Part shown: piece by piece, positions 29,870-62,469 of the stretch
How positions within the stretch are numbered: position 1 is the stretch's first letter
Layout of the letters: each line of letters begins with the position of its first letter
From: Nemertoderma westbladi
Taxonomy: Eukaryota; Animalia; Xenacoelomorpha
DNA length: 64,000 bases
Assembly: GCA_032718475.1 (NCBI GenBank)
Contig: JAUCBJ010001932.1
Span: 2,108 to 66,107 of the forward strand
Direction of reading: 5' to 3'
Position numbers and translations under genes: made by a program
The notes under the pieces: generated by a model
What the model saw: only the letters and a program-made list of their open reading frames with translations
What the model was told of the DNA's origin: nothing
Databases searched by the model: none

Positions 29870-30780
29870 ATTTTCTTCATAGAAATATAAGAGTTTCGGA
29901 ATTGACTGTTGTGTTCAGAGACTAATATTTGCTCTTGTGTACAGATTCGCTAAGTCCCAATCGGGATAATGACATTTGACAGATAGGGCTGCATGATTTT
30001 GTAGATGATGGTATATCGGAGATAATATTGAAATTTGATACATATTTATATTTCAGTAAATCAGTCGAGCACAATGCCCAGTCCAGCTGTGAAAACCATA
30101 TCTTTAAATGTAGTTTCCTTGAAACTCCTTTCCCTTAAAATTTGCATGATTGATGGGTGTTAAGTTTCTCGACTCACATAGTTTCAGAACTTCTCGGCCG
30201 TTTTGATTGACGGTTTTGTCAGGATTTGAGGAGTATTTTAAACACTTTTTTATACTTTTCTTGTGGGACAAAGTTACATTTCCCAAACGGGCGTTTAAGT
30301 CGCCCAAAATTAAAACGCTCGTATTCTGACGCTTTAATTGTTTATTGATTGGCGCGAAACTACAGAAATAAAAAAATGGTGAGTCAGATGGCGTAATATA
30401 AACTGCACCAAACCTAAAACTCGGATTTAGTACAAACAAAACCAAACTTGGTCTTTTAATACCTAGATATTGCAAACAGAGTAGAGAGTACCACAGTTGA
30501 GATCGAATAAAAACACCCACGTGCCACCTCTGTGACTGTGATATTCATTATCCAACATGAGACTTCGTACAAACTCGAAACCCGGTAAACCTATACGGTG
30601 TGCAGTTTATAATTCATTGACACAAATTATGTCATAATTTACAATTAGATTCGTGTAAAATTGAGATTCTAATTTATTACTTATACCGTTAATGTTAATA
30701 GATAGAATGTTTATAAAATTAGACCTAAAAGAGTTTTCCATCCCATTAATTTAAAATGTTGAGGCTGATATCCCTGTGAG
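29870..30780 (-). pseudogene. LINE APE endonuclease fragment
   Basis: ILSININGI..DIICVNE, GAVYITP.DS, LILGDLNAR, VNQNGREVLKLC motifs. Confidence 0.75.
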
Positions 30781-30782
30781 TG

Positions 30783-31002
30783 TTTCCCCCTGCTGCTAGC
30801 CTCTACTAGCTGTGTTCTCCCTCCGAGGTGGTTTGACCTCTCACCTCTCTCTGTGGCTTTAGGGCTTGTGTCGCCCCCCCCCCCCCAAAGTTGGTTATGA
30901 GGCGAGATTATTATTGGTAATCTCGTATCCCAAACTATATTGATAAAATGCCACTGGTCCCATTCTAAGGTGGATAGTGTAATCGAATTGAATCCGCTTA
31001 CA
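30783..31002 (-). repeat. Truncated 3' LTR of BEL element 2
   Basis: Matches ~38280-38496 with several substitutions; starts TGTAAGCGG on the minus strand right after the PPT. Confidence 0.85.
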
Positions 31003-31168
31003 CTCCCCCCAATGCTATCTTCCCGGTGAGAAGATAGCATCAAACTTAAGTGCGCTTCAATTCCGCTGGAACCCAACCTAATATCGGGTGTGGGGTGGAG
31101 TCTTTTCTCGGGGTCGGCTTTCCAGATCGACCCCCCCCGGGTGTGTTGTTGCTATCCCTCCTTGGTGC

Positions 31169-31443
31169 AAAAAAGTAAAGTAAAAGTAAATTTTCTTTGG
31201 CCGCTAGGCCAGGGATTACGCACAAAGTCTGACGGCTTATTTCCAGTACGGTCCCCCCAGAACTTTACTCCCCAGAGGAAACTCCAGTACTCATTTAGCT
31301 ACCACTTAAGGATGCAAGGCAGAGATGCGCCCTGGCTGGTCCCTTTAAAGCATTCGTGCCGAAACGAAAACTGCCCTGGCCCATGTGAGGATCGAACCCA
31401 CGACCTACGGGAGATGTGAATTCAATGCAACCACCACACCAAG
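31169..31443 (-). mobile_element. tRNA-derived SINE inserted in the 3' UTR of BEL element 2
   Basis: Minus strand has A box TGGTGTGGTGG, B box GGTTCGATCC, central gccttgcatcct..aaatgagtac (Meta-domain-like) and a (TTTAC)n tail. Confidence 0.7.
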
Positions 31444-32169
31444 GTGGAACCACGTTGTCCCTTATTCTCTCTCTCGCGGACCTCGTTGTCCCTTATTCTC
31501 TCTCTCACAGACCTCCTTGTCCCTTATTCTCTCTCCAGTCCCTTGGGACTCTTCCTTTCTCTCCGCTCGCTCCCCACACTTGAATTGCACTTATTCTACC
31601 TCCTCACGTGTCAACACCTCCTCTCCATACTTCCCCCGAATCCCCATTTTCGTTTTCATTCTCCATACACTTATTGGGTCCCACACATCTGCGCATCATG
31701 TTAGTGGGATCCGTCTAAGTCTTGTCCTGCCGTTCTAGTCAAATAGTCCCCAGTCCCAGTAGCTAATTGGAAAAAGGTTGTACTTGACTCTGGTATATAT
31801 ACGAGTTATATATATATAATAATTAATTATTATAATTATATAATATATATATTATATTATATGCTCGTCTACATGACGCGTCTTAACCCCCCCGCTCGGA
31901 GGTGATATGCCTCGTCACTCCCGGTCTTGCCCATTTTACTCTCTCTCCACCTTTCTCTTCTCTACTAACCTCTCCGCCATCACGAACTTTCCCGCGCTCA
32001 CCCAATTGGTGGGGCCTTACAAAGGCTCAATTTAAGTGAGTGCCGTTAAACAAGATGTTACTAGTTTCGTTCAGTAATGGCCTTCCTCCTACCTTGTTCT
32101 TTCTTTCGTGCCAATATTCCCCTAACTTTATTTTTATTTTTATTTTTTTGTGTTCCCCCCTGTCTGTGC

Positions 32170-32600
32170 TATTATCATATCTACCTTCCTACTTACTTAC
32201 GTGGCGCCTTCAGTGCCCACAACTTCTATGGTACTATGTACCCTACTACTATTACTACCCATGTACATATCCTATACTTCCTCTCACTACGTGGCGCTCT
32301 CAGTGCCCACAACTTCTAACTCCTACGGTACTATGTACCCTACTACTACTTCCATGGTATGCCTATATACCATACTCTCTACTCTCTTACTACGTGGCAC
32401 TCTCGGTGCCCACAACTTCTAACTCTCACGGTACTGTGTATCCTACTACTACTCTCTTGGTATGTCTATATACCACACTCCCTATTCTCTAACTTCTAAC
32501 TCTTACGGTACTATGTACCCTACTACTATTCTCATGGTATGTTAATATACCATGCTCCCTACTACTACTACTTAGTGCTACGTACTATCTACTACTATTA
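32170..32600. repeat. Degenerate tandem repeats downstream of integrase in BEL element 2
   Basis: Recurring tacgtggc..ctc.gtgcccacaacttcta...ggtactatgtaccctactact blocks. Confidence 0.8.
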
Positions 32601-35600
32601 CTTTCAACTATCTCGCTTCTTATTTTATTATTTGCTTATTATTTATTTTTTGTATTTTTTATGTGTGGGAAGGGCGTCTCGCCCTCATTCCCACCCCCTT
32701 CAGTCCAACATATTGGACGACTAAACTCTAAGGTGACCCTTCCAATAGGCAACACTTTCCCACAGCCCTCCTGTAGGTCTTCCTATCTTTGGCCCCTATC
32801 TTCCCTCCTATCCTCACTTCCACCAATCGGACTCTTCCGTCCCCATCGGGGTAAGTATCTACCACTCTCGCTAGTCTCCATTGGTTATTGATAATTGTGT
32901 CATCAGTGACGATTACCAAGTCTCCCTTCTTCAACTCTCTATTGGTATTTCTCCACTTACTCATCCTATGAAACGTCGGAAGATACTATTCTACCCATCT
33001 TCTCCAATACTCCAGACTTATTGCCTTGGCTACTTTCCAGCTTTGACGGGAATGTATGTCATCTGGATCTACACCCCGCATGTCAATCGTCGCCGTCCTC
33101 TCCATTAGCAAGTGTCCTGGTGTTAGCACGTCTAGTGATTCCGGGTAGTCATTCTCTGGATATAGCAGTCTGCTATTAATGATTCCCTCGCACTTGGCTA
33201 GCACCGTTCTTAATACGTCCTCAGTGACCATGTGGTTGTTCATAAGCTTGGTCATCAAACGCTGGGAACTTCTGACAAGCCTCTCTACACATCCTCGGCC
33301 ACCCAATTATCCACCAGCGTGCCGGCCAGCCAGCAGTCGACCAGCATCAATGTCGTGACTGATCGGCCACCTTCTCCCATCACCCTTACCGGTGAGAACC
33401 CCGAGTAGTACCGTTCCCCTTCTCTTCGCTCCTATGGTGCTTGTCGCCATCGTTTGACCTTTGCCTTGACCGAATCTTATTGGTGTCTCCTTACACTCTT
33501 CAACTCTGTGTCCTCCTACCACACATCGGTGACAAATTCCATTCTTATCAGAGAAGGCTATCCGATCTTGTTCGAGTAGCGCCTGCCAATGCTTACAGTC
33601 CATGGTCTTATGGGTTCCGTCTTTATGCAATTGACATTTGTATCCTGGGTTGTAACATTCCTTGTATAGCCCTACACGTATTGCACGTAGATTCACATCT
33701 ACCGGTTTAGTGTTTTGGTTATTTGGATATGGTAGACTGGGTGTGTTGGAATTATATTTGTTCGTGTTATTATTTTGACCCTGTTCGTGCCATGGTGTGG
33801 CCCTACTCCCAGCTATCTGTGGACTTGTAGTTCCCTGTGTCGCCGCGTATGGTAGCGACTGCCTCAACTTTGGTAAGGAATTTGCCGCACTATGTTCTGG
33901 TTTCGGCCTGTTGTATTCGGTCCTCGGCACCGTCCCCAGACTATCCTCGCTGTAGACTGGGTCCGTGATTAGTTCCGCCTCGTAATTGAGGAAGTTCGAC
34001 ATTTCCTCTAGGCCTGGTTCCACACCTTTCTTCTCCCAATCTTTCTCCACTTATTCCTCAGCCAGATCGGTAGTGCCTGCGCTATTGTAGTGATGTTATT
34101 CGATGCGTTGAGTTTGTAAGGCGCATCTAAGGTCTTTAGCACAATCAGCACCTTTTCGACTTTATACTCGAAAGTCATGATGCTGACAGGGTTATCCTAT
34201 AGTCCACCTGATGTTATTCCCCTCAAGGTTTGCCGGATGATCTTAGCAGGGTTTCCGAATTCCCTGTCTAGGGCCCGCCATGCAGTCGTGAATCCACCCT
34301 CGATACCCTGGTACTGCCTCACGATGTCGTATGCTGGCCCCCCTGTGTAAACTTGTAAGTATTTTAGGCACTCCGCCTGCATCAGATTCTTTATCAATGT
34401 CTCGTTACTGTACATATGCCGGAATTGCAGATATTCCTCCAGTTTGCTTCCATCGAATTTGAACGGCTCCACTGATGGCAGCTCGATCGTGGTCTTAAGC
34501 CCATCGATGAGTGTCACCATTCACATCGCTTGTACTTCTAGTGCGCTCGATGGATGCTGTACAGATTCCCCTGCTGCTGGGTGCGGTTCGCCCGTCAGGC
34601 CTGTCGACCTCCTTTGCGTCGGATATATCATTGGGGGTAGCGGCCCCCTCCATATCTCTGTATCGCACGATTTGTTTTGGTCCAAGGGGTTTGGGGTTTT
34701 TGTTCTTGGTTGAGTGTATTGTTGATATTGTAATGGTGGAATGTCACCCTGTCCCCCCCCCCCCCCCACCGGTGTTATATTTGGTATTGGGGTTGATATT
34801 ACCATGTTAGGGCCTAAACATCTATCGGCAATAGCTCCCCCATCCCCTGGGTATATGTTATATCCTTGCATATTATAGTCATACTGGTATGCAGGTACCG
34901 GTCTAGGCCTATCCACTCCTTGCCTATCTACCGGTATATATGCAGCGACTTCCGGATCTAATCCCATTGTCCGCGCTACCCTATCGCCTACACTATCTCT
35001 TCCAGCATGGCCTATAGTATGTGCAGTAAGGCCTACAGTATGTCCTGCAGTCTGCCTGTGTCCTTCCGGACCGAAGTTTATTCTTCTCGAATATTCCAAG
35101 AAGTCCTCCCCGCGACTACCGTACTCTCGATCAGCAGCTACATCCCATCGGGAAGTTTCTCTTCGATCCCCTCTCCTGTCCTCGTCCTCGTACCGGTACA
35201 TCCTGTACCCTTCTCCTGGTGTGTGGTATATCTCACCAGGTTGCGTCTCTCCGGGGCGACGGCAATCTCCCGGAGTTCGACCCCACTGACTCTCTAATTC
35301 CATCTCTGCTACCGACGGTTTACTGTCCGTCCTTCCTCTCCGGTTGCTCGTAGCAATGCTTCTTCTATTCTCTTCACTTCTTCTCTCTTCAGTGTAGCGA
35401 TCCCCTTTGTGAGATCGCGCTTCGACCTCCCGGATAAACTCCACTGTTCTTCTTCCGTCTTCCGACTGGGCTCGACATCTTGTCGCTTGCCCCCTCATGG
35501 CGCCAACCACCTCTCTCTCTCTACCCGGTTGGACGCTCCTGGGGATACTCGCAATCCCCTACTATTCTCTGTCGTTGGGTGCCGCGGTTCACCTAACTCG

Positions 35601-37840
35601 CCGCGCGCATTGTCCGCCAACACTTGTGGGACATTCTCTGCCCCCCCCCCTCTCGCCACTAATCTCTCGTGGTGGGGTTCCCGTAGCCCCCCCCCCCATT
35701 TGGCCTCTCTTACTTCGCTACCTCCCACTTCGCTTCTACGCCCCTCTCTAGTCGACGCACTATCTATACCCTGGCTGGGTCTACTCACCCCCGCCTCTCC
35801 CAGTGCGACTGCGTGGCCTTTCAGGCTCCCGGTGGGTTGACCTACCCCCCCTACTCCCTGTGCGACTGCGTGGCCTTGCAGGCTCTCGTTGGGTTGAATC
35901 ACCCCTACTACTCCCTGAGTAACTACGTGGCCTTGCAGGCTCTCACTGGCCGGACCACCTGTCTCCCCTATGTTTGTATTAATTGCACCGTTATTAATAA
36001 CATTATTTTGGTTAATTTCCTCTGGGTTATTATCTAACGTAATATTGTTACCTAAATTATTTAAATTATTTTGTTCAGAATTGGGGTTATTATTTTGATT
36101 ATTTTACATCTTTAATTTAGAATTATTATTTGGATTATTTTGCACATTTAAATTAGTATTATTATTTGGATTATTCTGCACATTTCAATTAGAATAATTA
36201 ATTCTAAAAATATTAAAATATTATTTCCTGCAAGAAAGGTTTGAATAGGGTTGTCTAATATGGTACTATTAATATTAATTCTTTCTAACGTATTATTATT
36301 ACCCCCCCCCCCCCCGCCCGTACGGTTACACCAGTCCTGGGTCTGTCGTCCAGCACCTGTAAGTGGGGTATTAACAAACGTTTCCATTACTTCTGGCTTC
36401 TCGTAAATACTACCCAAACCAGCCTCTCTCTCTGATAATCCCAACTTTGCCAGTTCTAACTGGCGCTTAGGCTTCACCTGGTATTGCATGAGCCCCCTCA
36501 ACCGGGTATGCATATCATCCCGCATACGCTTTCCCGATGTCTCTCTCTCTCTCTATCCTCTCGCAAACTTTGGTTCTCTAATTCTGTCTCCCTCGCCTCC
36601 CGCTCTCTACGCTTGTTTTCTATTCTCGCCTCCCGCTCTTTACGTTCGTTCTCTACTCTCATCTCCCACTCTCTACGTTCGTTCTCTACTCTCGCCTCCC
36701 GCTCTCTATGTTCGTTTGTTTCCCTCTCTACTCTCGCTGTCTCTTTCGCTTCTCGCTCTTTGTGCTCTTTGCGCTCTTTCTCTACTCTCGCCTCTCGCTC
36801 CTCTCGCTCCTCGCGCTCGTTTATCTCTCTCTCTCCTCCCGCTCCCTGCAGTTTCTCGCCACCCTCTCAGCCCTCTCTCTACATTCCCTTGCTAACTCTA
36901 TCTCTCTCTCTAATAATGCGATTCCCTCGTCTAGTTGCCTCTCCAACTCCTTCTGATCCAGCGCCACAATGTCTAGTTGACACCCCAGATCTATCTCTAA
37001 CACCCTTCTTGCTTTTGCGGAGGATGTAGCGGACTTATCGGTCGTGACGGACTCCCGTCGCCTCTCTGTCACACTAACTTTCCCCCGCTTTCTCGGGTTC
37101 TCGCTTACCTATGACACCGAATCCTCGGGGTTAACCTTGGGTTCGCCGTCGTGCGGGTCCGCCTATCCCACTAACTTAATTCCCCTTGCATCCACTAAGT
37201 AAGGCCCTACGTACACTATGCCTGGCTCCATTACCCCGGACCGCCACAATTCAAACAGTTCCGTGGCGACCCCCCTTGCTCTCTCACTCCCCAGTTCTCC
37301 CTGTCCGAAATGGACCAAATAACGAAAATGTTTATTCGACTCACCTAGACTCTGTTATAGTTTAGGCTGGTCTACCTTTCTCCCCTCCTTGGCCTCTTTG
37401 AGTAGTTTCTTGGTGGCGTTGTAGGCCCGTCGTAGCCGATTACTCGTCCCGACGTCCTCTTCATCGACTCTACCTTCTCTCCTCGTCCGGCATCGTACCG
37501 GCAGCCCCACTGTCGCCGTTCCGGTGGGCCGTCCGTCGCCCTCAGCCGGTGACTGGCCAGCAACTTCGGTACTCCGACCGCCGTCGTCGTCGTGCGTCGA
37601 CCGGTCTCCCTCTCTCCTTCGTAGTTGACGGCCGCCCTCCGCTTGGGCTACCGGATCATCCCTCGTCGGCGAATCCGGCGTGGCAGGCCGATACCATCTC
37701 GTCGTGGCCTCTCGGATCATTTGGTTGGTGTCGTCCGGGGTCCGCAGCGGCATTCTCTCCCCCTCTGATAATCGGGGCTACTGATTGCTCATCTTTACTT
37801 TCCTTGGCAGTCACAGTTTGTTAGTTGGTCAGTTTATGAC

Positions 37841-38496
37841 TGTGACAGGATCATAGATCCCGACAGGGTTAGATATGTACGCGTCACCATTTGCTGGAGC
37901 AGCTGTGTTATAGTCACTTTGGCCGAAGGCCGTCGGGAAAATAAGAGAGTTTGTGTTTCTCAATATTAATCTTCCGAAATGATAATAGCACAGGACTATG
38001 TATGTAATGAATATCACAATACAAAATAACAGCAGAAAATACAACACAGATATTAATCGGTTATGTTGGTAATGGTGACGGTCATAAACTATGATCGGTC
38101 TGTAACTCTGTAACTAATGAACTGACCGGTAAATCAGTAGTACAGAATAATATATGATTGATACAAACATATATTGGTTTCACCTCTTACTTTACTTGGC
38201 CCTCTGTACCCAGTGGATGCTTTCCTATCTCTAATCACATGCTTCCATCCCCGCTATTGGCTAATACACTAATTGTCACTTTCCCCCTGCCGCTAGCCTA
38301 TACTAGCTCTGTTCTCCCTCCGAGGTGGTTTGACCTCTCACCTTTCTCTGTAGCTTTAGGGCTTGTGCCACCCACCTCCCAAAGTTGGTTATGAGGCGAG
38401 ATTATTATTGGTAATCTCGTATCCCCAACTATATTGATAAAATGCCACTGTTCCCATTCTAACGTGGATAGTGTAATCGAATTGAATCCGCTTACA
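37841..38496 (-). repeat. 5' LTR of BEL element 2 (656 bp)
   Basis: Minus strand TGTAAGC...GATCCTGTCACA; end motif shared with the element 1 LTR (GATCCCGTCACA). Confidence 0.85.
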
Positions 38497-43218: not shown

Positions 43219-43759
43219 TGTTAGCTTATTCAATCCCGCTAACACCCCATAAAGTTATAAGCCGATAAGCAATATTGGGAGCCACGAGATTGGGTAATTA
43301 ACCAACTCGTGGCATCCCAATAAGAATGGGAAGGAGAAGCACACAATGAGGGTCAGGGGCCAAACCCCTAACCCAGAGAGAATAGGTGGAGTGAACGGGA
43401 ACACTCCAAAGGGCGCCAACAAGGGTATCAACCAATCAGAGGGGGGAAAGGCATCGATTAGGTAGAGTAACAAGGCCAACCGTGCAATATAGCCACTTGG
43501 CAGTAATAATACCAATTCAGTTATCTCAGTGCAATACCGGTGCTAGATTAGGTTACAATAGTTTTAGATAGGGAAGGACCGGGACTTTAGTTACCGTATC
43601 CCGCCTTCCATATACGACAATATTATATCTATATCTATATCTATATCTGCATATCATATTATATACGACAAACAGTACAAGCTCATTTACTCTTTATACA
43701 CGGCGGGGACGCGTGAACTAAAACCGGATAAACCGGGATTCCTCTTGGATCCCGTCACA
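43219..43759 (+). repeat. 5' LTR of BEL element 1 (541 bp)
   Basis: Differs from the 3' LTR by two visible substitutions and one 6-bp microsatellite indel. Confidence 0.97.
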
Positions 43760-43768
43760 GTAACTAAA
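43760..43768 (+). promoter_or_regulatory. Non-tRNA primer-binding site (GTAACTAAA), complementary to LTR 43586-43594
   Basis: Directly follows the LTR terminal CA; no TGG; reverse complement TTTAGTTAC lies inside the LTR. Confidence 0.7.
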
Positions 43769-43826
43769 TCAGCTGCCGCCCTAGATAAACTCTGTAACCA
43801 CCAGCCACCAAATCTGCAGGGGAAAG

Positions 43827-46131
43827 ATGAGTCAGTCGGGTGAGATAACACCGACGCGGACCCCGGACGAAGAGCTAACGATCCGCGAGGCCGCAACCAG
43901 GCGATATAGGCCCACGACGCCGGACCCATCGATAACGGGTCATCCGGCAGTTCAGGACGAGGGGGGCCTGGAACCTGAGGTCGAGCCGAGAGGAAGAGAG
44001 AGCGAGACGGAGGGAGAAGGAGACGAGTCGACACGGGACGGGGGTCGACGCACCGATGTCGCCGGCCAGCCACAGGCCGAGGGCGACGAGCGGCCCACCG
44101 AAACGGCGACGGTGGGGCCGACGGTGCGGCCCCGGACGCAGAGAGACGAAGGAGATATCGGTACCGATGTCGCCGGCCAGCTACAGGCCGAGGGCGACGA
44201 ACGGCCCACCGGAACGGCGACGGTGGGGCCGCCGGTACGACGTCCAACCCGGAGAGACGGACGAGGGGTCGGCGACGAGGACGTCGGGGTTTCTGAGCGA
44301 CTTCGACGGGCCTACAACGCGACCTGGAGACTACTAGAGGAGGCCAGAAAGGGGAAAACGATAGACGAGGTAAAACTGAAGTCAGGACTAGGTAAGTCGG
44401 ACAGACATTTATACTATCTAATGCATTTCGGGCAGAGAGAATTGGCCGAGGAGAGAGCGAGAAAGGTTGCCGAGGAACTGTATGACTCATGGCGGCATGG
44501 GGGTATACAACCTAGTGTAGTGTACATAGGGCCATATATAATCGATGCCCGGGGTATAAAATTAATGGGTTGGAACAGACCTGAAGGGGGCGAATCCGAG
44601 GTTAACCCCGAGGATTCGGCCTCGTCGGTCGGAGGGAGTTCCGGGAGGAGGGGGAAAGTTAGTAGATCGGGAAGGCGGAGGGAGTCCGTCGCAACCGATA
44701 AGTCTGCTACATCCTCCGCGAAAGAAAGACTGGTGAGAGAGGCAGGTGCCGCGTACCGTCTCGAGCTGATAGAGCAAGGTCAGAGGGAAATGGATAAACG
44801 GCTAGAGGAGGGGAGAATGCGGCTAGAGAGGGAAGCGGCATTGATTAGAGAAACCGGAGAGAGGGCCGAAAGGGCTTTGAGAGGCCTTAGGGAGTGTGAG
44901 GAAAAGGAGGAAAAGGAGTGTAGGGAACGTGAGGCGAGAGAGGAAAGGGAACGCAAAGAGCGCGAGGCGGAACGCAAGGAGCATGAGGCAAGGGAGGAAA
45001 AGGAACGCAAAGAGCGTGAGGCGGAACGCAAGGAGCATGAGGCGAGAAAGGAAAGTGAACGTAAGGAGCGTGAAGCGAGGCGAAGGGAGAGTGCTAGGAA
45101 AGTAGTAGAGTTGGCTGAGCGGGACACGCGGGAGTGTGAGAGGAGAATGGCAGGAGCCGAGCGACACCATGATGAATTAAAGAGATGCCAAAGTGAGCTT
45201 GGGGAACATAGGGTTAGACGCGCGCACGAGCTGCAACTGGTGCGGGCGGGGGCGTCTGAGAGCGAGACAGGCTCGAGTATTTTAGAGGAGCCAGGGGCCG
45301 TGGATACATTTATTAATACCACACTTACAGGGACCGCACGACAGACCCAAAACTGGTGTGACCGTACGGGCGGGGGGGGGGGGGGGGGGGGTAATAATGA
45401 TAATGGTACAGTAGACGTGGTTAATATTAATAGTACCGTATGGGATAATTCTAATCAAACCTTTATTGCAGGAAATACTTTGCCTAGTGGTAGTAATTTA
45501 AATTTAAATCAGAACAATCTTAATATTAATGTAGAAAATAATCCTAATATTAATGTAGCTACGCAAAATAATCCAAATAATCAAAATAATAATAATTCAA
45601 ATAATTTAATTAATGAGCCAAGCCCGAATTTACAAGATAATTCAAATGATTTTATTTCGAACGAACAAGTTAATTCCGTTCCCAATACGGGACACGGGTG
45701 CTATTAATGTAAACACGTCGGGCGTGTATGGCCAGACAGATGGGGCCCAGGTAGGCCACGTAGTTGGTAGGCAGGGAGTGGCTGGGTTGGATGGACCCAG
45801 CGAGGGCCTGGTAGGCCACGTAGTTGGTAGGCAGGGAGTGGCTGGGTTGGATGGACCCAGCGAGGGCCTGGTAGGCCGCATAGTCGGTAGGCAGGGAGCA
45901 GAGGGCCTGGTAGGCCACGCAATAGCAGAGAGAGAGGCGGGGGTGAATAGACCCGACCGCGGTAGGGTTGATGTGTCGACTAGAGAGGGATATAGTAGCG
46001 GGATGAGAGATAGCGAAGTTAGATGTGGCGAGTGGGGGGGGGGGGGGGGGGGGGCTACGAGAGCCCCACAACAGCGAGTTAGCGGCGAAAGGGGGGGGGG
46101 CAGAGAGTGTCCCACAGCCGTCAGCGGATAA
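43827..46131 (+). pseudogene. Long low-complexity / coiled-coil N-terminal gag extension, frameshifted
   Basis: ORFs 43827-45707 and 45613-46131. Element 2 reads through the poly-G junction in one frame (35495-35902), so these pieces belong to a single gag-pol ORF. Confidence 0.75.
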
Positions 46132-49100
46132 TGCGAGGGCCGAAATAGGTAAACCGCAACAACCGGCGACGGAAAGTAATAGGGGGATTGCGAGTATCCC
46201 CAGCGGCGTGCGACCGAGCAGAGAGAGACAGGTTGACGTCGTAAGAGGGCGGACGAAGCGTCGAGCCCGATCCGAAGAGGGAAGAAGAACAGTGGGGTTT
46301 AACCGGGAGGTCGACGAGAGATCTCACGGGCGGGAATACTCCACTGAAAGGAGAAGAAGAGAAGACAGTAGTAGAAGTATCGCCGCGAACGATAGAAGAG
46401 CGAGGACGGATAGCGAGCCGTCGGTAGTCGAGATGAGAACAGAGAGTCAGTGGGGTCGGACTCCGGGAGATTGCCATCGCCCCGGAGAGACGCGACCCGG
46501 CGAGGCGCACTACGCGCCGAGAGAGGGGTACGCGATGTACCGGTACGAAGATGAGAACAGTAGAGAGGGGGGTCGAAGAGAAACTTTCCGACGGAATATA
46601 CCTACCGATCGAGAATACGGTAGCCGCGGGGAGGACTACTCGAGAAGGATAAACTTCGATCCCGAGCGACACATGCAGACTGTAGGACATACTGTAGGCC
46701 TTACTACACATACCGTAGGCCATACTGAGAGAGGCAATGTAGGCGATAGGATAGCGTGGACAACGGGATTAAACCCGGAAGTCGCGGAATACATACCGGC
46801 GGGTAGGCCAGAAGCTGATAGGCCTATACCGGTACCAGTACAACAGTATGACTACAGCATGCAGGGACATAACATATACCCAGGGGAGGGGGGAATTATT
46901 GCGGATAGGTGCATGGGCCCCAACATATTAACATCAACCCCAGTACCAAACATACCGGTGGGGGGGGGGGGACAGGGTGACATTCCCCCATCACAATATC
47001 AACAATATACCCCGATAGGAGCAAGAACAACGAGACCCTTGGATGAGAATAGGTCGTGTGATACAGACATATGGAGGGGGCCGCTACCCCCGATGACATA
47101 CACAAGTCAGAGAAAGTCAAGAAATAGGACAGACGGAACGCACCAGACAGGGGAAACTATACAGCATCCGTCGAACCCATTGGAAGCACAGGCGATGGGG
47201 ATGGCCACGTTGATCGACGCGTTGAAAACGAGGATCGAGCTACCACCCGTGGAACCATTCAAATTCGATGGGAGCAGGCCGGAAGAATATCTACAGTTTC
47301 GGCGCATGTATAGTAACGAAATACTAACAAAAAACTTGACGCAGGCGGAGTGCCTAAAGTATCTGCAAGTGTACACGGGAGGCCCAGCATACGATATCGT
47401 GAGGCAATATCAAGGAATAGAGGGCGGCTTCACGACAGCATGGCGGGCACTGGATAGGGAATACAGGCACCCGGCCAAGATCATCAGGCAGACGCTGAGA
47501 GGCATAACATCGGGTGGCCTACAGGATAATCCCGTTAGCATTAAGACGTTCGCTAACAAAGTCGAAAAGGCGCTAATCGTGCTGAAGACGCTAGACGCGC
47601 CGTACGAGCTCAATGCGTCCAACAACATCACCACGATAGCGCAGGCACTACCAAACTGGCTGCGCAACAAGTGGAGGAAAATCGCCTTCTCCACTCGAGA
47701 TAAGAAGGGTGCGGAACCGGGTTTAGAAGAAATGTCAAACTTCTTAAACTACGAGGCTGAGCTAATAACTGACCCAGTCTATAGCGAAGACAGCCTGGGA
47801 AAGGGACCGAAGACAGAGCACAACACATCAAACGCATTACCGAGACTCAGGCAATCATTGCCATATGCAGCGACGCAGGGGACCGCAAGTCCACAGCTAG
47901 CCGAGGATAAGACAACACCATGGAACGGACAGGGAAACAATAACAACACGAATAAACATAACCCCAGTACGTCCAGTAGGCTAAATCCAAACAATAAGAA
48001 TAGTAGGGACTTTGGTACAAACGCAACTGCGATACGCAATGCACTGTATAAAGAGGGCTACGACCCAAAGAGCAAATGCCAGCTACACGCAAATGCGCTT
48101 CATCAAACCATGAACTGCAGGTACTGGCAGGCGCTACCTAGGCAGGATCAGATAGATTATGCGTTCAGCAATAAAATCTGCTCGCGATGTGTAATGAGTG
48201 GACATAGAGCAAGGGAGTGCAAGGAGAAGCCAATAAAATTTGGTCAAAAGAGAGGCCAAACGATGGCGACCAGCACAGTAGGGGCGAAGGAGAGGGGAAC
48301 GGTGTTACTTGGAGTATTACCAGTGCAAGTTATCGGGGAAGGCAATCGATCAGTAACAACACTAATGCTGGTTGATAGTGGAGCTGCCTTCACATTAGTC
48401 GAGGAATGGGTGGCCGAAGAGATAGGATTGAGAACGAGGCCAAGCAGGATGGCGGTAACAACCATCTCTAGCAAAGATGAGATCCTGGAGATGAGAACAG
48501 GACGGTGCGCAATTGCAGCAATGGCACCAGGATGCGACTATGGGGCAACCATCGACCCCATCCAAGTGATAGAGTCAATTAATATTAATGCCAGGCGACC
48601 AACCAACATCGAGGTCGAGCAGTATAAATTCCTGGACGACATTGACTTCTCAATCCCAGACGTGGACGTTAGGAAGGTGTCCATCATAGTGGGCATGGAC
48701 TGCCCAACGGCCCACGAAAGAATGCAAACGGTCTTCGGCGAAGACAAGCAGAGCGACCCGGTGGCCATATTAACACCATTCGGGTGGACGCTGAGTGGTC
48801 CAATTAAGAGCAAGATACCATTTAGGATGTCGGAGACATCAGGATGCATGTTCGCGGGTACTATGCAGGAAATGGGTGACGAGGGAGCAGAGGAGCAGCT
48901 TAAAAGACTGCTCGGACAGGATTTCGAGGGACTGAAAGAAACCGGAGTCGGGACCTCAGTAGAAGACAAGCAGGCTTTACAAAGCGTGGAGGAATCAATG
49001 ACATGCGATGAGGGACGGTATACTATAGGAATGGTATGGAAACTACCGAAGATACCGCTGCCCGACAATAGGGGGATGGTACTCACGAGACTCCGCAAAC

Positions 49101-50611
49101 TGAAACAAACACTAAAACGGAGCCCCGAGAAGAATGAGTACATCCACAGAACAATTAAGAAGTACGTCGAGAAAGGATGGGCCGTGGAGTTACCGGTCGA
49201 CGAGCCGAACACAGATAGGACATATTACCTGCCACTGCACGTGGCTTTAGATCCAAAGAAAGGTAAACTAAGGATGGTAGTCGACGCATCGGCAAAGACC
49301 GACGGAAAGTGCTTAAACGACTACCTGTTAGAAGGCCCAAACATATACAATTCGGGCATAGAGGTGTTACTTAGATTTAGAAATGGGAAACACGCCTTCA
49401 CGTGTGACATAGAAGGCATGTTCAACCAAGTCCGTGTAACGGAAGAAGATAGCGACAGTCAGCGCTTCTTATGGTATAACGGCGAGGAAGAACCGTCGAT
49501 AATACCGGCATATAAGATGGTAGTACAGAACATGGGGGCCAAGTCGTCTTCATTTACGACGACTATGGCAGTGAGAGACACAGTAAAGGGGAAGGAAGAT
49601 AGATACAGCAGTAGGGCCATCGATATGATTCGACGCGGCTTCTACGTAGACGACGGAATGGAGTCTGGAAATACGGTTAAGGAGATACTGGATACAGGGC
49701 GCGAGGTTCGCGACATCCTAAAGGGATCCGGCTTTAACCTGACCAAATTCCAATCCAGTTCGGAAGAATTTATCAAAGCCATAGAGGACAGGAAACCAGA
49801 ATCGACCATGGATAATCCCACAACAGCCAAAGGGCAGGACATGGCGATTAAGAGAACGGAATCCCAGCAGAAGGCATTGGGAATCGTGTGGGATAGAGAG
49901 ACAGACGAACTGAAGTATCAGCTGAGCCAGGAGGGCGCAGACATCCACACGAAGAGGGGTTATGTATCGTATATAGCAAGGATATACGATCCCCTAGGCC
50001 TAGCATCCCCATTATTAGTCACGGGGAAACAGATACTCAAGAGAGTATACAAATTGAAAGATGAGTGGGACGTAGAGGTACCAGAGGAAATCAAGAAACA
50101 GTGGAGCAAGTTGACAGGAGACTTGGGGAAGATGGGAACATACAACATGCCACGGGTGTATTTCCCGGATGGGAACATGACGAATCTGGACCTACACATG
50201 TTCTCCGACGCGTCATTGGAAGCGTACGGAGCGGCACTCTACTTAGTACAACGAGAGGGGGCTCATAAGCCAAGACTAGCCTTTAGCAAAGCAAAGTCAA
50301 CGCCGCCAGATTCAGCATCAGTTCCTAAGTTAGAATTGACAGCTGCGAGACTAGGAGTAAGAGCCACAGCCTACCTAGTGGATACTATTCCCAACATAGT
50401 GGAGACACACTACTGGACGGATTCCATGGTAGTGCTTGGTTGGCTACACAACGAAAGGACGATATACCCGACATTCGTCGCGAATAGAGTGGACGAAATA
50501 AGGGCGAGTACAGAACTGGAAAGGTGGCACTACTGCCCAACAGACGACAACCCAGCGGACTTGTTGTCGAGGGGCGTGGTACGCCACACTTTCTTGAAGA
50601 AGGAAGTATAG
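46025..50611 (+). CDS. BEL/Pao gag-pol (gag core, zinc knuckles, protease, RT, RNase H)
   Basis: FDGS..EYLQF, C..C....H....C, LVDSGA, YYLPLH..KLRMVVDAS, FYVDD, LHMFSDAS, VPKLEL, DNPADLLSRG. Ends at a premature TAG (EV*WQHGPRFL). Confidence 0.93.
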   Translation: MASGGGGGGGLREPHNSELAAKGGGAESVPQPSADNARAEIGKPQQPATESNRGIASIPSGVRPSRERQVDVVRGRTKRRARSEEGRRTVGFNREVDERSHGREYSTERRRREDSSRSIAANDRRARTDSEPSVVEMRTESQWGRTPGDCHRPGETRPGEAHYAPREGYAMYRYEDENSREGGRRETFRRNIPTDREYGSRGEDYSRRINFDPERHMQTVGHTVGLTTHTVGHTERGNVGDRIAWTTGLNPEVAEYIPAGRPEADRPIPVPVQQYDYSMQGHNIYPGEGGIIADRCMGPNILTSTPVPNIPVGGGGQGDIPPSQYQQYTPIGARTTRPLDENRSCDTDIWRGPLPPMTYTSQRKSRNRTDGTHQTGETIQHPSNPLEAQAMGMATLIDALKTRIELPPVEPFKFDGSRPEEYLQFRRMYSNEILTKNLTQAECLKYLQVYTGGPAYDIVRQYQGIEGGFTTAWRALDREYRHPAKIIRQTLRGITSGGLQDNPVSIKTFANKVEKALIVLKTLDAPYELNASNNITTIAQALPNWLRNKWRKIAFSTRDKKGAEPGLEEMSNFLNYEAELITDPVYSEDSLGKGPKTEHNTSNALPRLRQSLPYAATQGTASPQLAEDKTTPWNGQGNNNNTNKHNPSTSSRLNPNNKNSRDFGTNATAIRNALYKEGYDPKSKCQLHANALHQTMNCRYWQALPRQDQIDYAFSNKICSRCVMSGHRARECKEKPIKFGQKRGQTMATSTVGAKERGTVLLGVLPVQVIGEGNRSVTTLMLVDSGAAFTLVEEWVAEEIGLRTRPSRMAVTTISSKDEILEMRTGRCAIAAMAPGCDYGATIDPIQVIESININARRPTNIEVEQYKFLDDIDFSIPDVDVRKVSIIVGMDCPTAHERMQTVFGEDKQSDPVAILTPFGWTLSGPIKSKIPFRMSETSGCMFAGTMQEMGDEGAEEQLKRLLGQDFEGLKETGVGTSVEDKQALQSVEESMTCDEGRYTIGMVWKLPKIPLPDNRGMVLTRLRKLKQTLKRSPEKNEYIHRTIKKYVEKGWAVELPVDEPNTDRTYYLPLHVALDPKKGKLRMVVDASAKTDGKCLNDYLLEGPNIYNSGIEVLLRFRNGKHAFTCDIEGMFNQVRVTEEDSDSQRFLWYNGEEEPSIIPAYKMVVQNMGAKSSSFTTTMAVRDTVKGKEDRYSSRAIDMIRRGFYVDDGMESGNTVKEILDTGREVRDILKGSGFNLTKFQSSSEEFIKAIEDRKPESTMDNPTTAKGQDMAIKRTESQQKALGIVWDRETDELKYQLSQEGADIHTKRGYVSYIARIYDPLGLASPLLVTGKQILKRVYKLKDEWDVEVPEEIKKQWSKLTGDLGKMGTYNMPRVYFPDGNMTNLDLHMFSDASLEAYGAALYLVQREGAHKPRLAFSKAKSTPPDSASVPKLELTAARLGVRATAYLVDTIPNIVETHYWTDSMVVLGWLHNERTIYPTFVANRVDEIRASTELERWHYCPTDDNPADLLSRGVVRHTFLKKEV

Positions 50612-52282
50612 TGGCAGCATGGGCCACGATTTCTGAGCGATAAGGAGGCCTGGCCGCCGATGAGAAAGGTGGACCCGGGCTCAGAAGTAGTGTCAGAGGG
50701 AGAAGAGGGAGATTCAGAGGGAGAAGAGATATACTCCCAGATGGTGAGGGAGATTAGGGACGTGCAACCAGGACGGGAACTGTGCGATAACCCGACGGAT
50801 AAACTCCTCAGCTACAGTTCTAGTTGGTATAAGACCAAGAAACTAGTGGCATACTGGAGAGCCTTCGGGAACTTCCTTGGGGGAGTTGGCAAGGACAAGA
50901 AGATCAGGACAACCATAGATCTGGAAGGAGCGGCCAAGGCAGTGATCCGCTATGAACAACGGAGGAACTATGGCGACGAGGTGGAACGCGTCGGTAACCA
51001 ACAGCACCTCCGACGGGACAGCGAGCTGATTACGCTGTCGCCATAACTCAATGACGACGGGATTCTAGTAATGAATTCTAGGGTGGGATACAACAACAGC
51101 ATAGTCGTACCACCGAAACCCATCATCATTCCTACAGGATCGCCAATAGTCCACCAGATCATATGGGACTCCCACAAATTGATATTGCACGGGGGCACCA
51201 ACCGAACCCTCACAGAGATAAGGAGGACCTATTGGGTCAAACAACTGAGGAAGAAGGTAAAAGCGGTAGTGGGGCAGTGCCAGACCTGCCGACGAGCGAA
51301 GAAGGAGCGAGCCGTACAGGAGATGGCGCCACTACCGGCGAGTAGGGTAAGACAGCACGACCCGCCATTTACGCATTGCGGTGTGGACATGTTCGGGCCG
51401 ATAAAGATCAAAGTGATGCGACACACGGAGAAACGCTATGGCATTATCTTCGTATGCAACAATACGCGGGCGGTAGGGATAGAACTCACCCAAGATGCAA
51501 CTGCATCAGCATTCATTAACGCCTTAGAAAGGTTTAGGGACCGCAAAGGTGGGACGATCGCAGTGATATACAGCGACAACGGCACCAACTTTGTGGGCGC
51601 AGAGAGTGAGATGGCAGAGGCCTTGGACATCTTGGAGGGGGAAGAAGTCAGGGCAGCCATGAGACGACGACAAGTAAAGTGGGAGAGAAGGACGCCGTAT
51701 GCACCACATACACTAGGATGCGTCGAGAGACTGGTGGGCAGTTCAAAGCGTCTAATGACGAAGCTGATGAACACCCTCATGGTCACTGAGGACGTCTTAC
51801 GGACAGTACTTGCGAAGTGCGAGGGGATCATTAATAGCAGACCGCTATATCCGGAGAATGATGACCCTGAGTCATTAGATGTGCTGACGCCTAGCCATTT
51901 CCTGATGGAAAGGCCAGCGACCATCGATATGCGGGGTGTAGACCCAGATGACATACACTCCCGCCAAAGTTGGAAAGTCGCAAAGGCAATAAGCGCAGAG
52001 TATTGGAGGAGGTGGGTCGAGGAATACCTACCCACACTCCATAAACGAAGCAAGTGGAGGAAGTCAAACAGGGAGTTAAGAGAGGGAGATCTCGTAATCG
52101 TTACGGATGATACTATCATCAACAACCAATGGCGGTTGGCGAGAGTTGTAGGCACCTACTCCGACGAGGACGGAAGAGTCCGATCGGTAGAAGTGCGGAT
52201 AGGTGGAAAGATAGGTGCGAAGGACAGAAAAACCTACAGGAGAGCTGTAGGCAAATGCTGTCTATTAGAAGGGGCACCTTAG
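50612..52282 (+). CDS. BEL/Pao integrase portion, same frame, with one more internal stop at 51044-51046
   Basis: H..LHGG..CQTC, GVDMFGP, SDNGTNFVG, GCVERLV, NSRPL, LTPSHFL, YWRRW..EYL, WRLARV. Confidence 0.93.
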
Positions 52283-52429
52283 AAGAGTTAGAGAAAAGTT
52301 TAGTCGTCCAAGTTTTGGACTGAGGGGGGTGGGATTGAGGGCGAGACGCCCTTCCCACAAACAAAATAGAAAATAAAATAAAATAAATAATAGTACATGC
52401 TAGGTACGCAGTTAGTAGGCAGAAGTTAG

Positions 52430-53050
52430 TTAAGAGGTACATAGTACCTGGTCAGTTAGTTAGTTAGAAGGTACGTAGTACCTAGTTAGTTAGAAGGTAC
52501 GTAGTACCTAGTTAGTTAGTTAGTTAGAAGGTACGTAGTACCTAGTTAGTTAGTTAGTTAGAAGGTACGTAGTACCTAGTTAGTTAGTTAGTTAGTTAGA
52601 AGGTATGTAGTACCTAGTTAGTTAGAGAGTTAGAAGGTACGTAGTACTTAGTTAGTTAGAGAGTTAGAAGGTACGTAGTACCTAGTTAGTTAGTTAGTTA
52701 GAAGGTACGTAGTACCTAGTTAGTTAGAGAGTTAGAGGGTACGTAGTACCGATAGTTAGTTAGAGAGTTAGAAGGTACGTAGTACCTAGTTAGTTAGTTA
52801 GTTAGAAGGTACGTAGTACCTAGTTAGTTAGAGAGTTAGAGGGTACGTAGTACCGATAGTTAGTTAGAGAGTTAGAGGGTACGTAAGTACCGCTAGTTAG
52901 TTAGAGAGTTAGAGGGTACGTAGTACCGATAGTTAGTTAGAGAGTTAGAGGGTACGTAGTACCGATAGTTAGTTAGAGAGTTAGAGGGTACGTAAGTACC
53001 ATTAGTTAGAAGAGTTAGAGTTAGAGGGTACGTAGTACCGTTAGTTAGAA
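52430..53050. repeat. Minisatellite (gtacgtagtacc + (tagt)n) between integrase and the extra ORF
   Basis: About 19 variable 25-41 bp units. Confidence 0.92.
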
Positions 53051-53476
53051 GAGAGAGAGTAAGAGGTAAAAGGGGATATAGATATAGATATTAGTTAGCA
53101 GTTAGTAGAGAGAGGGGGGCATATGAGTACAGCTGGGTAAGTCGTGTGGCCACACGACGCATACTGCTGCACTGCATAGACCCACAGAGTAGGCCAGAAT
53201 GTGGATTAGAGAATAGAATAATCCATAGGCAGTAGTAAGTAGTAGGACAGTAGAATCAAATTAAATAGATAAATAAATAGAATAGGGCTGAAAGTTGTAA
53301 AATAGTGGCAACACAAGGGAAGTTATTCTAGAACATAATAAGAAATTGTAAATTACGCTCATTTACTAGCTTCAAAATTAATTAGGAATAATTTAGGTTA
53401 AAAGGCGCAGTTAAGTACCTAAGGGACCTACGGGACGCCGTCGCTGGACAACGCGATCTTCCAACACTTCCACTAC

Positions 53477-55744
53477 GTGGTGAAAGGGGACGAGGCGAAG
53501 TTCGGGATTCCGAAGTACCCGAGGGAATCACCGAGGAAGGACTGGAAGAGATTCATAGAGTCCGTCAACAGAGGAGGATATATGATCCTAGATGATGAGG
53601 GAACCGTGGAAGACGAGGCGGGTTCGAGACGAGGAACTGCGGGGTCGGCCAGGACCATACTCCTACATTTGGCCGCGCCAAATGGGGACATCTTCTTATT
53701 CGACCTAGGGATGTATGGGAAGAAGGACGGGCCGAAATTAGACCGGTTACCGAAAGCGGTACAAGTCTTAGTAAGAGAGAAGTCGACGACGAAAGTGGGA
53801 TCGGCGATTCGCGAGGACACGGAGAGGATCATCGGTCCAGACGCCACCAACCTCCTGGATATGCAGAAAGTCTTTATGGCTATGACGGCACCGGATGGGT
53901 TGGGGGTAGTCGAAAACACAGGCCAATGCGGGGCGGTGGCAATGGGCCAATTATTGGGGCTCGTATGCCACAAACCGATGGACTGGGGGAAGTTTAGGGA
54001 AGAATACGGAGCAGAACTAGCGAACTCGCTAAAGTGGGGAGCGAGTCCGGGAAAGCAGGAGGTATATCAGTTCCGCAGGGGAGCGATAAAGGTATATCAG
54101 AAGCGATATATCCTGCAGGAGGACTGGATGATGATAAGTTTGCTTAACTTATTCATGACCGTGGTTATCGAGAGGGAACCAGGGGCATTTTTGTTATCGG
54201 GATCACCCCTAAGCTACAGGAGAGCCTTTGTGTACTATAACAGCCGACATCTGGTAGACGGGGAGACAGATACACCGTATCAGAGATGGGAGCAGCTAGA
54301 GACGGATAGACGAGAAGCAAAGCGACTGGAAGAAGTTGCTAGACGGGAGAGGATAGAAGCAGAGGAGAGGGAAGAGGAGGACAGGACACAGAGTTACGGC
54401 TTCGAGGAACAGGCAGGCCTAGACGAACTTCATTGGACTTCATCATGGAGTTCGGGGGAGTCTCTAGGGCGAGAATTGGGATGGACGGTGGGATCGCCGA
54501 AACAGTCGACGTCGGGGTTGCAAACGATGCCCATACCAGCGGGCGCCGAGGGCGACCAACCGCCAAGGAAGTTAAGGGAGCTGGAGGGATGGAGAGCTAC
54601 GGGCGAGAGCCAAGGCGGGAAGGGACATAGTGGATCCATCGGGATACCGGGGTTGGAGACACTGCCAGAAGAAGAGGAGGACGACGACGACGAGTTCGGA
54701 GAGATGCCGCCCATCGAGAGGATAGGCCACTCGGACACGGACTGGGTTGGCGGAAGGGTGGTGACGGCCAGTGGGGCGAAGGCCTTCTGGAACAGATCCG
54801 GCAAGCAGACCTGGGTGCACGAGGACCCGGCGATGTATTTCGCGGGGAGCACCATCAGGTTGGGCGAACAACCGGGGACGGCACCACGGGTAGTATTCGG
54901 GGAGACGATGCCCGAGAGGGGCGGAGAGATCGACGTAGATAGAGAGACCAACGTAGAGAAGTTCGCCTACCAGCGACTCCACAGACCGCGGAGATCGCTC
55001 GGGACGAAAGACGAGGTGGGACGGGAGACATTGGTACTCGGCTGCGACTACTGTGGGAGACAGACCCATCGGGAAAGCAGCTGCCTATACCGGTTCCAAA
55101 AGGGAACCTTTTGTCTCTACTGCAGAGAACCAAGCCACAGGATGGGGGCGTGTCCACGGTTGCACAACCGATGTCCAAAGTGCCACTTTCGGGGACACTA
55201 TGGACGCGAGTGCGACTGGATGAACGACGAGGAGAAGTTCACAAGATTCGAGGAGTGGGCCGACGTCGGGGCCATGACGCGCCAGCGCATGAAGGCCCAG
55301 GAGTTCAAGTGGGCTTTCTTCCTTATCAATCAGGAGACTCACATGGAAATCATAAAGCGGAGGCTACTGTTTACCTACCAAGAGGTAGCAACGGCGGCGT
55401 CGTACGCTGGAGTGATGAACACGCAAAGGTATTTGGACAGGTGGACGCCAGAGAACCGAAGGGAGTTTAGGGGTTTCTTGGCGGAGCACGTACCAAAGGC
55501 AATGAAAATGATCCTATGGGACGCCACCAGAGGGAGACAACCGGGCCACTCTGAGGGGCCACCGGCGAAGCGATATCGGGCACTAATAACACCAGCGCCC
55601 AAGGAGCCAACGACCGGGATCAGCAGGGAGGTGGCGGCGAAGGTCCGAAAGCAGAAAGCGGATGATGCCAGAGGAATGGTGATAACCAAGAAACGACCCA
55701 GGGAAGAGGACGCCAGGGGGAACTATCCCCAGAGGAACAGATAG
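53477..55744 (+). CDS. Extra ORF of BEL element 1: putative DEDDy 3'-5' exonuclease, coiled coil and three CCHC knuckles
   Basis: ILDDEG (ExoI), LLHLA..DIFLFDL, LPKAVQVLVREKSTTKVGSAIRED (ExoII), NLLDMQ, QKRYILQED (ExoIII-like); CX2CX4HX4C x3 at 55043-55213; uninterrupted 755 codons; first ATG at 53582. Confidence 0.75.
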   Translation: MVKGDEAKFGIPKYPRESPRKDWKRFIESVNRGGYMILDDEGTVEDEAGSRRGTAGSARTILLHLAAPNGDIFLFDLGMYGKKDGPKLDRLPKAVQVLVREKSTTKVGSAIREDTERIIGPDATNLLDMQKVFMAMTAPDGLGVVENTGQCGAVAMGQLLGLVCHKPMDWGKFREEYGAELANSLKWGASPGKQEVYQFRRGAIKVYQKRYILQEDWMMISLLNLFMTVVIEREPGAFLLSGSPLSYRRAFVYYNSRHLVDGETDTPYQRWEQLETDRREAKRLEEVARRERIEAEEREEEDRTQSYGFEEQAGLDELHWTSSWSSGESLGRELGWTVGSPKQSTSGLQTMPIPAGAEGDQPPRKLRELEGWRATGESQGGKGHSGSIGIPGLETLPEEEEDDDDEFGEMPPIERIGHSDTDWVGGRVVTASGAKAFWNRSGKQTWVHEDPAMYFAGSTIRLGEQPGTAPRVVFGETMPERGGEIDVDRETNVEKFAYQRLHRPRRSLGTKDEVGRETLVLGCDYCGRQTHRESSCLYRFQKGTFCLYCREPSHRMGACPRLHNRCPKCHFRGHYGRECDWMNDEEKFTRFEEWADVGAMTRQRMKAQEFKWAFFLINQETHMEIIKRRLLFTYQEVATAASYAGVMNTQRYLDRWTPENRREFRGFLAEHVPKAMKMILWDATRGRQPGHSEGPPAKRYRALITPAPKEPTTGISREVAAKVRKQKADDARGMVITKKRPREEDARGNYPQRNR

Positions 55745-56422: not shown

Positions 56423-56460
56423 ATGCTATCTTCTTACCGGGAAGATAGCATGGGGGGGAG
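56423..56460 (+). promoter_or_regulatory. 11-bp hairpin abutting the polypurine tract
   Basis: ATGCTATCTTC-ttaccgg-GAAGATAGCAT, then GGGGGGGAG, then the LTR. Confidence 0.8.
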
Positions 56461-56995
56461 TGTTAGCTTATTCAATCCCGCTAACACCCCATAAAGTTAT
56501 AAGCCGATAAGCAATATTGGGAGCCACGAGATTGGGTAATTAACCAACTCGTGGCATCCCAATAAGAATGGGAAGGAGAAGCACACAATGAGGGTCAGGG
56601 GCCAAACCCCTAACCCAGAGAGAATAGGTGGAGTGAACGGGAACACTCCAAAGGGCGCCAACAAGGGTATCAACCAATCAGAGGGGGGAAAGGCATCGAT
56701 TAGGTAGAGTAACAAGGCCAACCGTGCAATATAGCCACTTGGCAGTAATAATACCAATTCAGTTATCTCAGTGCAATACCGGTGCTAGATTAGGTTACAA
56801 TAGTTTTAGATAGGGAAGGACCGGGGCTTTAGTTACCGTATCCCGCCTTCCATATACGAAAATATTATATCTATATCTATATCTGCATATCATATTATAT
56901 ACGACAAACAGTACAAGCTCATTTACTCTTTATACACGGCGGGGACGCGTGAACTAAAACCGGATAAACCGGGATTCCTCTTGGATCCCGTCACA
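56461..56995 (+). repeat. 3' LTR of BEL element 1 (535 bp)
   Basis: Direct repeat of 43219-43759. Confidence 0.97.
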
Positions 56996-57790: not shown

Positions 57791-57825
57791 CACTATAGAA
57801 TTGTTAAAGATAATATGTTATAGAA

Positions 57826-62390: not shown

Positions 62391-62469
62391 CGGGATTCTG
62401 TAGCTAATATAGAAAAGGATGCGGTAGCTAATATGTTATAGAAAGGGATGCGGTACCTAATAAGTTTAA

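Follow-up and report, generated by a model that had tools for sequence, protein, structure and literature searches.

Organisation of the locus

The sequence analysed here, hereafter the window, is a 64,000-nt stretch of the Nemertoderma westbladi (Xenacoelomorpha) assembly GCA_032718475.1 (contig JAUCBJ010001932.1, positions 2,108-66,107 of the forward strand). On its plus strand we found a reading frame, designated ORF3, that remains open over 773 codons from stop to stop. ORF3 is carried by a 13.8-kb BEL/Pao retrotransposon, where it lies between the two LTRs and 3' of the integrase, in the order purine-rich tandem spacer, ORF3, polypurine tract and 3' LTR. The features of this element, and of a second, decayed BEL copy on the opposite strand, are collected in Table 1. 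An earlier note on this DNA had described a 755-codon frame within the LTRs and after integrase, which agrees with our analysis; the figure of 755 is obtained when codons are counted from a GTG at 53477. The first ATG of the frame is found at 53582, just 3 codons ahead of the ExoI aspartate. Another ATG in frame with ORF3 is present farther upstream and is followed by a consensus splice donor; in the copy present in the window, a splice model starting from this site finds no stop-free, frame-compatible acceptor upstream of 53524.

The same note considered ORF3 not to be env-like, and this view holds. The highest hydropathy over 19 residues is 1.3, the usual cut-off for a membrane helix being about 1.6, so that no membrane segment is indicated, and Pfam detects no envelope family in ORF3.

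Table 1. Features of the ORF3-bearing retrotransposon and of the second BEL copy (window coordinates)
Feature	Position	Strand	Remarks
5' LTR	43219..43759	+	541 nt, TG...CA, GTTTG just before
LTR segment complementary to the primer site	43586..43594	+	9 nt, candidate self-primer 3' end
Non-tRNA primer-binding site	43760..43768	+	adjoins the LTR end
gag-pol, BEL/Pao type	43785..52282	+	DUF1759, protease, RT, Peptidase_A17/RNase H, integrase, DUF5641
Purine-rich tandem-repeat spacer	52389..53100	+	units of about 34 nt, from pol to ORF3
ATG, then consensus splice donor	53123-53142	+	in frame with ORF3
ORF3	53423..55744	+	773 codons stop-to-stop
Predicted DEDDy-like 3'-5' exonuclease domain	53498..54190	+	D 53591, E 53597, D 53816, Y 54107, E 54119 (D 54122)
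Linker, about 285 residues	54191..55042	+	from sequence: E/R-rich helical stretch, then acidic and Gly-rich
Three CX2CX4HX4C zinc knuckles	55043..55213	+
C-terminal region, no known family	55214..55741	+	basic clusters at the end
Polypurine tract	56452..56460	+
3' LTR	56461..56995	+	535 nt, GTTTG just after
Second BEL copy, decayed	30780..38496	-	about 77% identical; 5' LTR 38496-37841, 3' LTR from 31002 truncated

The assignment of the element to BEL/Pao relies on its gag-pol, in which Pfam recognises DUF1759, Peptidase_A17 (E 1e-39) and DUF5641 (E 4e-25), the protease, reverse transcriptase, RNase H and integrase following one another in that order. This frame is interrupted by two stops (50609-50611 and 51044-51046) and by two apparent shifts of frame, at about 45.7 and 46.0 kb. 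One of these shifts, close to a poly-G tract, could reflect an error of sequencing. The integrase is at most 43% identical to the relatives listed and sits on a long branch in a quick tree that does not place the element. Between the two LTRs there are 2 substitutions and 6 gap columns, and GTTTG flanks them on both sides, so that the insertion is young. This 5-bp repeat lies inside a GTTT microsatellite and is therefore weak as a target-site repeat.

Compared with the Belpaoviridae as profiled by the ICTV (PMC8742986), the element shares the set and order of Pol domains, the Pao-specific Pfam families, LTRs of the TG...CA type, a polypurine tract and a 5-bp flanking repeat. It differs in its length (13.8 kb versus 4.2-10 kb), in the lack of a tRNA primer site and in a third gene that is not env-like. 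A triple Cys-His box is expected in the Gag of BEL/Pao elements (PMC554778); in the Gag boxes that start at 48074 (48074-48300) the first is degenerate, the second exact and the third absent, and the second copy shows the same arrangement. Tas likewise lacks the triple box. The 5' extension of gag (43785-46007) is very long and of low complexity, with E/R-rich and Asn-rich stretches and internal repeats. The second copy has undergone a large deletion in pol, contains no ORF3 and possesses its own 10-nt self-pairing site.

ORF3 encodes a predicted DEDDy-like domain followed by three zinc knuckles

Database searches with ORF3 were largely silent. Neither Pfam nor NCBIfam matches it at E 10, and phmmer with the N-terminal domain found no true relative among 1.84 billion representatives. 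The sole match in that search, a 14-fold repeat aligned over 19 residues, was rejected as an artefact. Word-index searches over limited length ranges also returned no relatives of this domain, nor did searches among metagenome contigs, plasmids, phages and PDB sequences. Using ESM features, similarities of 0.94-0.95 were obtained, and 25 of 30 matches fell in the set of PF01612, an annotation carried by 50% of the members in the best such cluster.

A profile was built from 60 bacterial DEDDy domains (RNase D, NrnC, Pol I and WRN-like), the query being excluded. It scores the ORF3 domain at 16.8 bits (P 1.6e-7), and the highest score among 3000 shuffles is 6.6. When applied to the real frames of the window and of 80 BEL loci, 3066 in all, it puts ORF3 in first place (E 0.0037; runner-up 0.15). 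Two smaller profiles that had been tried earlier gave P values of 8.5e-5 and 1e-3, the second of which fell short of the best shuffle. With hhalign, the comparison of the domain with DEDDy gave E 1.4e-4 and a probability of 52%. At the level of sequence, the tests of the 60-domain profile against shuffles and against real frames favour homology to DEDDy exonucleases. The identity of the ORF3 domain to any reference is below 21%.

The earlier note had listed the motifs of a DEDDy exonuclease, and most of this list stands. The Asp and Glu of ExoI and the Asp of ExoII, which follows KVG, occupy the reference columns, the Gln and Tyr of ExoIII are in register, and the motifs run along the alignment in the order D-E-D-Y-E. 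The exception concerns ExoIII, where the column of the catalytic Asp is occupied by Glu and an Asp comes at the next residue, so that the strict Y-x3-D test fails. In addition, the two small residues after the ExoIII Tyr are replaced by Ile-Leu. The surroundings of this motif follow the Q..Y...D/E-x-W pattern of WRN-like enzymes. Overall, 8 of 11 conserved DEDDy columns are matched, a count equalled by 1 of 150 shuffles in a column test that is weak on its own. Given that ORF3 fails the strict ExoIII test, we file it as DEDDy-like and as a predicted nuclease only.

The fold itself was examined with two models. Folded as a single sequence, the domain reached a pLDDT of 33.9, which makes fold searches with that model meaningless. 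AlphaFold guided by the DEDDy alignment gave a pLDDT of 73.9 and a pTM of 0.76, with core blocks at 87-95. In the PDB, the guided model comes closest to DEDDy exonucleases (Z 12-13, rmsd 3.4-4.0), and such enzymes also head its matches among viral proteins; Nibbler, EXD1 and Egalitarian are found among its structural matches. The guided model fits the DnaQ/WRN fold anticipated in the earlier note, and the unguided one is uninformative. Because the DEDDy alignment steered the guided model, its fold match indicates compatibility and is no independent proof. Taken with the profile results, the N-terminal domain of ORF3 is, very probably, a highly diverged DEDDy fold.

As for the C-terminal half, the three exact CX2CX4HX4C knuckles reported earlier are indeed present, starting at 55043, 55112 and 55172. 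When ORF3 was shuffled 20000 times, a single exact motif was recovered once (1/20000) and three motifs never (0/20000). An ESM search with the knuckle region produced only leads below 0.9. The basic clusters at the C-terminal end resemble nuclear localisation signals. A Trp-containing stretch of the linker (54730-54830) looks loosely like a WW domain by eye, and Pfam gives no support for it.

ORF3 is an accessory gene of the element and is apparently under selection

We found no repeat pair longer than 60 nt flanking ORF3 other than the LTRs of the element. A separate nested insertion, which the earlier note had envisaged, is thus not indicated, and the membership of ORF3 in the element is supported. 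The codon make-up is also element-like: the proportion of T at third positions is 0.09 in ORF3, 0.12-0.13 in pol and 0.31 in a neighbouring LINE.

Two DNA runs from different studies, one of which may be the source of the window itself, yielded 2296 and 1360 contigs on the exonuclease part at 80-100% identity. Among 111 variants of ORF3, the 40 best supported (which are no random sample, and in which neighbouring changes were scored singly) include 28 synonymous changes, compared with 12.5 expected (P 6e-7), and 26 fall at third positions. Going by this synonymous excess, ORF3 is apparently under purifying selection across copies. Some contigs carry 51 extra bases, in frame, at 54229/54230. 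The earlier note had also pointed to an intact ORF3 beside a gag-pol with stops. This argument does not carry weight: with 3-5 breaks in about 2830 codons, ORF3 would escape them by chance with P 0.26-0.44.

For comparison, 80 BEL loci were kept from 506 in a partial scan, 29 of them with at least 1.5 kb downstream of the integrase. Homologues of ORF3 in BEL elements, which the earlier note had proposed to look for by tblastn, did not emerge from these 80 loci, the search giving only 3 weak matches to the knuckles (E 0.14-0.31). In the same loci the DEDDy profile gave no match below E 0.1, and of the 26 plus-strand downstream ORFs, 17 were scanned in Pfam, none of which matched an exonuclease family. 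Missing from the second copy and undetected in the 80 BEL loci, ORF3 shows the pattern of an accessory gene.

The primer site pairs with the LTR

No TGG-type tRNA primer site was detected in the element. Instead, the nine bases that follow the 5' LTR pair exactly with a segment of this LTR, and such a match is contained in 33 of 20000 shuffles of the LTR. The second copy has different letters at its primer site and keeps a 10-nt pairing with its own LTR (23 of 20000 shuffles). Moreover, the two BEL copies (43586-43768 on the plus strand and 38090-37831 on the minus strand) have, beside the self-pairing, a second stem that covaries as well as a terminal hairpin, and the minimum-energy folds of both copies form the pairing between LTR and primer site, an alternative fold of the ORF3-bearing element being within 1 kcal/mol. 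The distance from the complement to the LTR end is 165-240 nt in each of the three LTRs examined. Initiator-like motifs occur at the complement itself and again 27-69 nt upstream of it, with no AATAAA nearby. The sequence feature on which the self-primer idea of the earlier note was based is hence present, and these features suggest that the BEL/Pao family of this element likely primes itself independently of tRNA. This departs from the ICTV profile, which describes the Belpaoviridae as tRNA-primed with an 18-nt tRNA primer site (PMC8742986).

Nine other BEL loci were surveyed for self-pairing, of which one was clear (L019), one marginal (L004, with an 8-nt pairing and 4 of 100 surrogates) and seven without clear result. 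L019, a distant BEL relative, has an 11-nt self-pairing primer site (0 of 100 surrogates) starting at 327, a 3' LTR at 6695-7103 and only about 160 nt between integrase and polypurine tract; it contains no ORF3. About a dozen other BEL loci have a TGG-type tRNA site, and eight (L004, L016, L046, L048, L049, L063, L070 and L072) show neither a TGG-type site nor a clear contiguous self-pairing. Several of these eight have splice-donor-like motifs in their LTRs.

The co-occurrence of ORF3 with a non-tRNA primer site, put forward in the earlier note, breaks down in the second copy and in L019, both of which keep the self-pairing site and lack ORF3; ORF3 is consequently dispensable for such a site. 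As the second copy is a deletion derivative, L019 is the sole clean case.

Comparison with known systems

Some nematode Cer elements carry extra ORFs, and we know of no nuclease ORF3 in Tf1. Little is understood of the accessory genes of retrotransposons, env aside. The closest precedent is provided by bdelloid rotifers, in which DEDDy ORF3s are described in the LTR elements Juno and Vesta and in Athena/Terminon elements (PMC5408684; PMC6431247; PMC5718144), in line with the earlier note. The rotifer paper reports that their activity is yet to be shown, that they have no clear link with copy number and that their intragenomic evolution is near neutral (PMC5408684). In terms of these descriptions (no rotifer sequences surfaced in any of our searches), ORF3 resembles them in being family-specific, in its env position downstream of pol, in its DEDDy-like character, in the lack of a membrane segment, in an altered acidic tetrad and in an activity that is only predicted. 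It differs in its BEL/Pao host and in its tetrad, which is D-E-D-E here and DEED in the rotifers, and in its three CCHC knuckles, whereas a Cys-His-Cys motif is mentioned for some of the rotifer ORFs (PMC5408684).

A similar architecture, a DEDDy domain followed by tandem C-terminal CCHC knuckles, is found in the trypanosome RNase D TbRND (PDB 7c42), whose knuckles bind RNA, its efficient cleavage depending on them (PMC7797062). The guided model aligns with 7c42 over 191 residues (Z 12.4, rmsd 3.7, 17% identity), a score tied with those of several others, and phmmer finds no match between ORF3 and 7c42. TbRND is unlike ORF3 in being a cellular mitochondrial enzyme with four knuckles, a canonical tetrad and a linker of 28 residues, compared with about 285 in ORF3. 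The shared architecture is probably convergent. By analogy with trypanosome RNase D, ORF3 may be an enzyme acting on RNA 3' ends. Nibbler/Mut-7, EXD1, WRN-exo and Egalitarian have, according to the model, the same predicted fold as ORF3 (Z 10.8-12.4); unlike ORF3, they are host genes without CCHC knuckles. The structural Z-scores being tied, no donor can be named for the ORF3 domain.

The primer site invites a comparison with the self-priming chromoviruses Tf1 and Tj1, in which it is likewise complementary to the element's own LTR (PMC4600332); these belong to a different superfamily. The literature covered, mostly titles and abstracts, with subscription journals, Repbase and supplements outside its scope, contained no DEDDy ORF in BEL/Pao, no retroelement exonuclease fused to tandem CCHC knuckles and no self-priming in BEL/Pao. 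Within this literature, DEDDy ORF3s of rotifer elements are thus known, and the BEL/Pao host and the triple-knuckle fusion did not come up. The present case extends the DEDDy ORF3 arrangement to BEL/Pao and adds tandem knuckles and apparent purifying selection across copies.

Possible functions of ORF3

We tentatively favour, while giving it somewhat less than an even chance, the reading of ORF3 as an extra BEL/Pao gene for a predicted DEDDy exoribonuclease with three CCHC knuckles that serves as a counter-defence factor. The protein would be expressed from a spliced or sub-genomic message and would grip single-stranded RNA via its knuckles, which, following the example of trypanosome RNase D, may deliver the RNA to the active site. 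In the ORF3 active site, the Glu at the place of the ExoIII Asp, or the adjacent Asp, would still bind metal. The RNAs to be trimmed or degraded would be small RNAs of the host or tailed RNAs directed against the element, the target of ORF3 being the silencing pathway of the host. We rank this reading first because ORF3 is patchy in occurrence and very fast-diverging yet selected, and because its fold relatives include proteins of small-RNA pathways, such as Nibbler and EXD1 (for EXD1, bioRxiv 10.1101/2025.08.03.668247).

In another reading, the exonuclease fold of ORF3 has little or no catalytic activity and works as an RNA-binding adaptor, like EXD1 or Egalitarian; it would sequester small RNAs or carry element RNA to the germ line or nucleus. 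The Glu in the ExoIII Asp column and the bulky residues after the Tyr point in this direction, the long linker and the basic C-terminal clusters fit an adaptor, and the guided model matches both EXD1 and Egalitarian in structure. Moreover, a preprint describes Egalitarian as functioning without need for its active-site residues and as carrying the RNA of the I-factor retrotransposon, and EXD1 as inactive (bioRxiv 10.1101/2025.08.03.668247). Nevertheless, three acids and the Tyr are kept and the fourth place is still acidic at less than 21% identity to the references, and rotifer ORF3s with altered tetrads (DEED) were judged intact (PMC5408684). We consider a mere adaptor unlikely, albeit with an appreciable chance. 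That the DEDDy likeness is a chance pattern, or that ORF3 is a captured passenger without a role for the element, seems quite improbable. The lack of any match in Pfam, NCBIfam, PDB sequences and 1.84 billion representatives and the uninformative unguided fold are what would be expected in that case, whereas the profile beats shuffles and real frames, the motifs are ordered, synonymous changes are in excess and the codon make-up is element-like.

The self-pairing site suggests a role in priming as well. ORF3, packaged via its knuckles, would mature the self-primer by trimming a cut leader or the poly(A) tail down to the 9-nt duplex, leaving a 3'-OH where the reverse transcriptase starts. Such a step would suit an element that has no tRNA site and whose pairing with the LTR is kept, with other letters and over 10 nt, in the second copy: the end of the duplex has to coincide with the LTR edge, the complement lies well inside all three LTRs at a place that is not clearly the first base of the transcript, and Gag lacks a third Cys-His box. 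In Tf1, the primer cut is made by the RNase H of the reverse transcriptase. That the Tf1 primer is made by cleavage (PMC4600332) speaks against a need for trimming, and so do the second copy and L019, which have the site without ORF3. We therefore regard the maturation of the self-primer by ORF3 as rather unlikely. A bolder proposal, similarly doubtful, is that this BEL/Pao lineage gave up tRNA priming and brings along an enzyme for primer maturation: the DEDDy exonuclease, tethered by its knuckles and with D-E-D-E at its centre, would travel with the genomic RNA and trim the RNA end of the element back to the duplex at which reverse transcription begins. Whether acting in counter-defence, as we tentatively prefer, or in priming, ORF3 offers a single expressible protein for asking if mobile elements are equipped with nucleases that counter small-RNA defence, or with ones that serve their own priming.

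Other features of the window

Outside the two BEL copies, the window contains a satellite array of about 8.7 kb (15750-24500), made of 29- and 24-nt units with a strong G skew. An open frame of 519 codons (59166-60725) was recognised by eye as a LINE-type reverse transcriptase. A dispersed repeat is present at 24695-25466 and at 62378-63165, the two being 98% identical over 300 nt, and a fragment of it at 57825-57898 reads, from its motif, like a piece of a Penelope-type reverse transcriptase.
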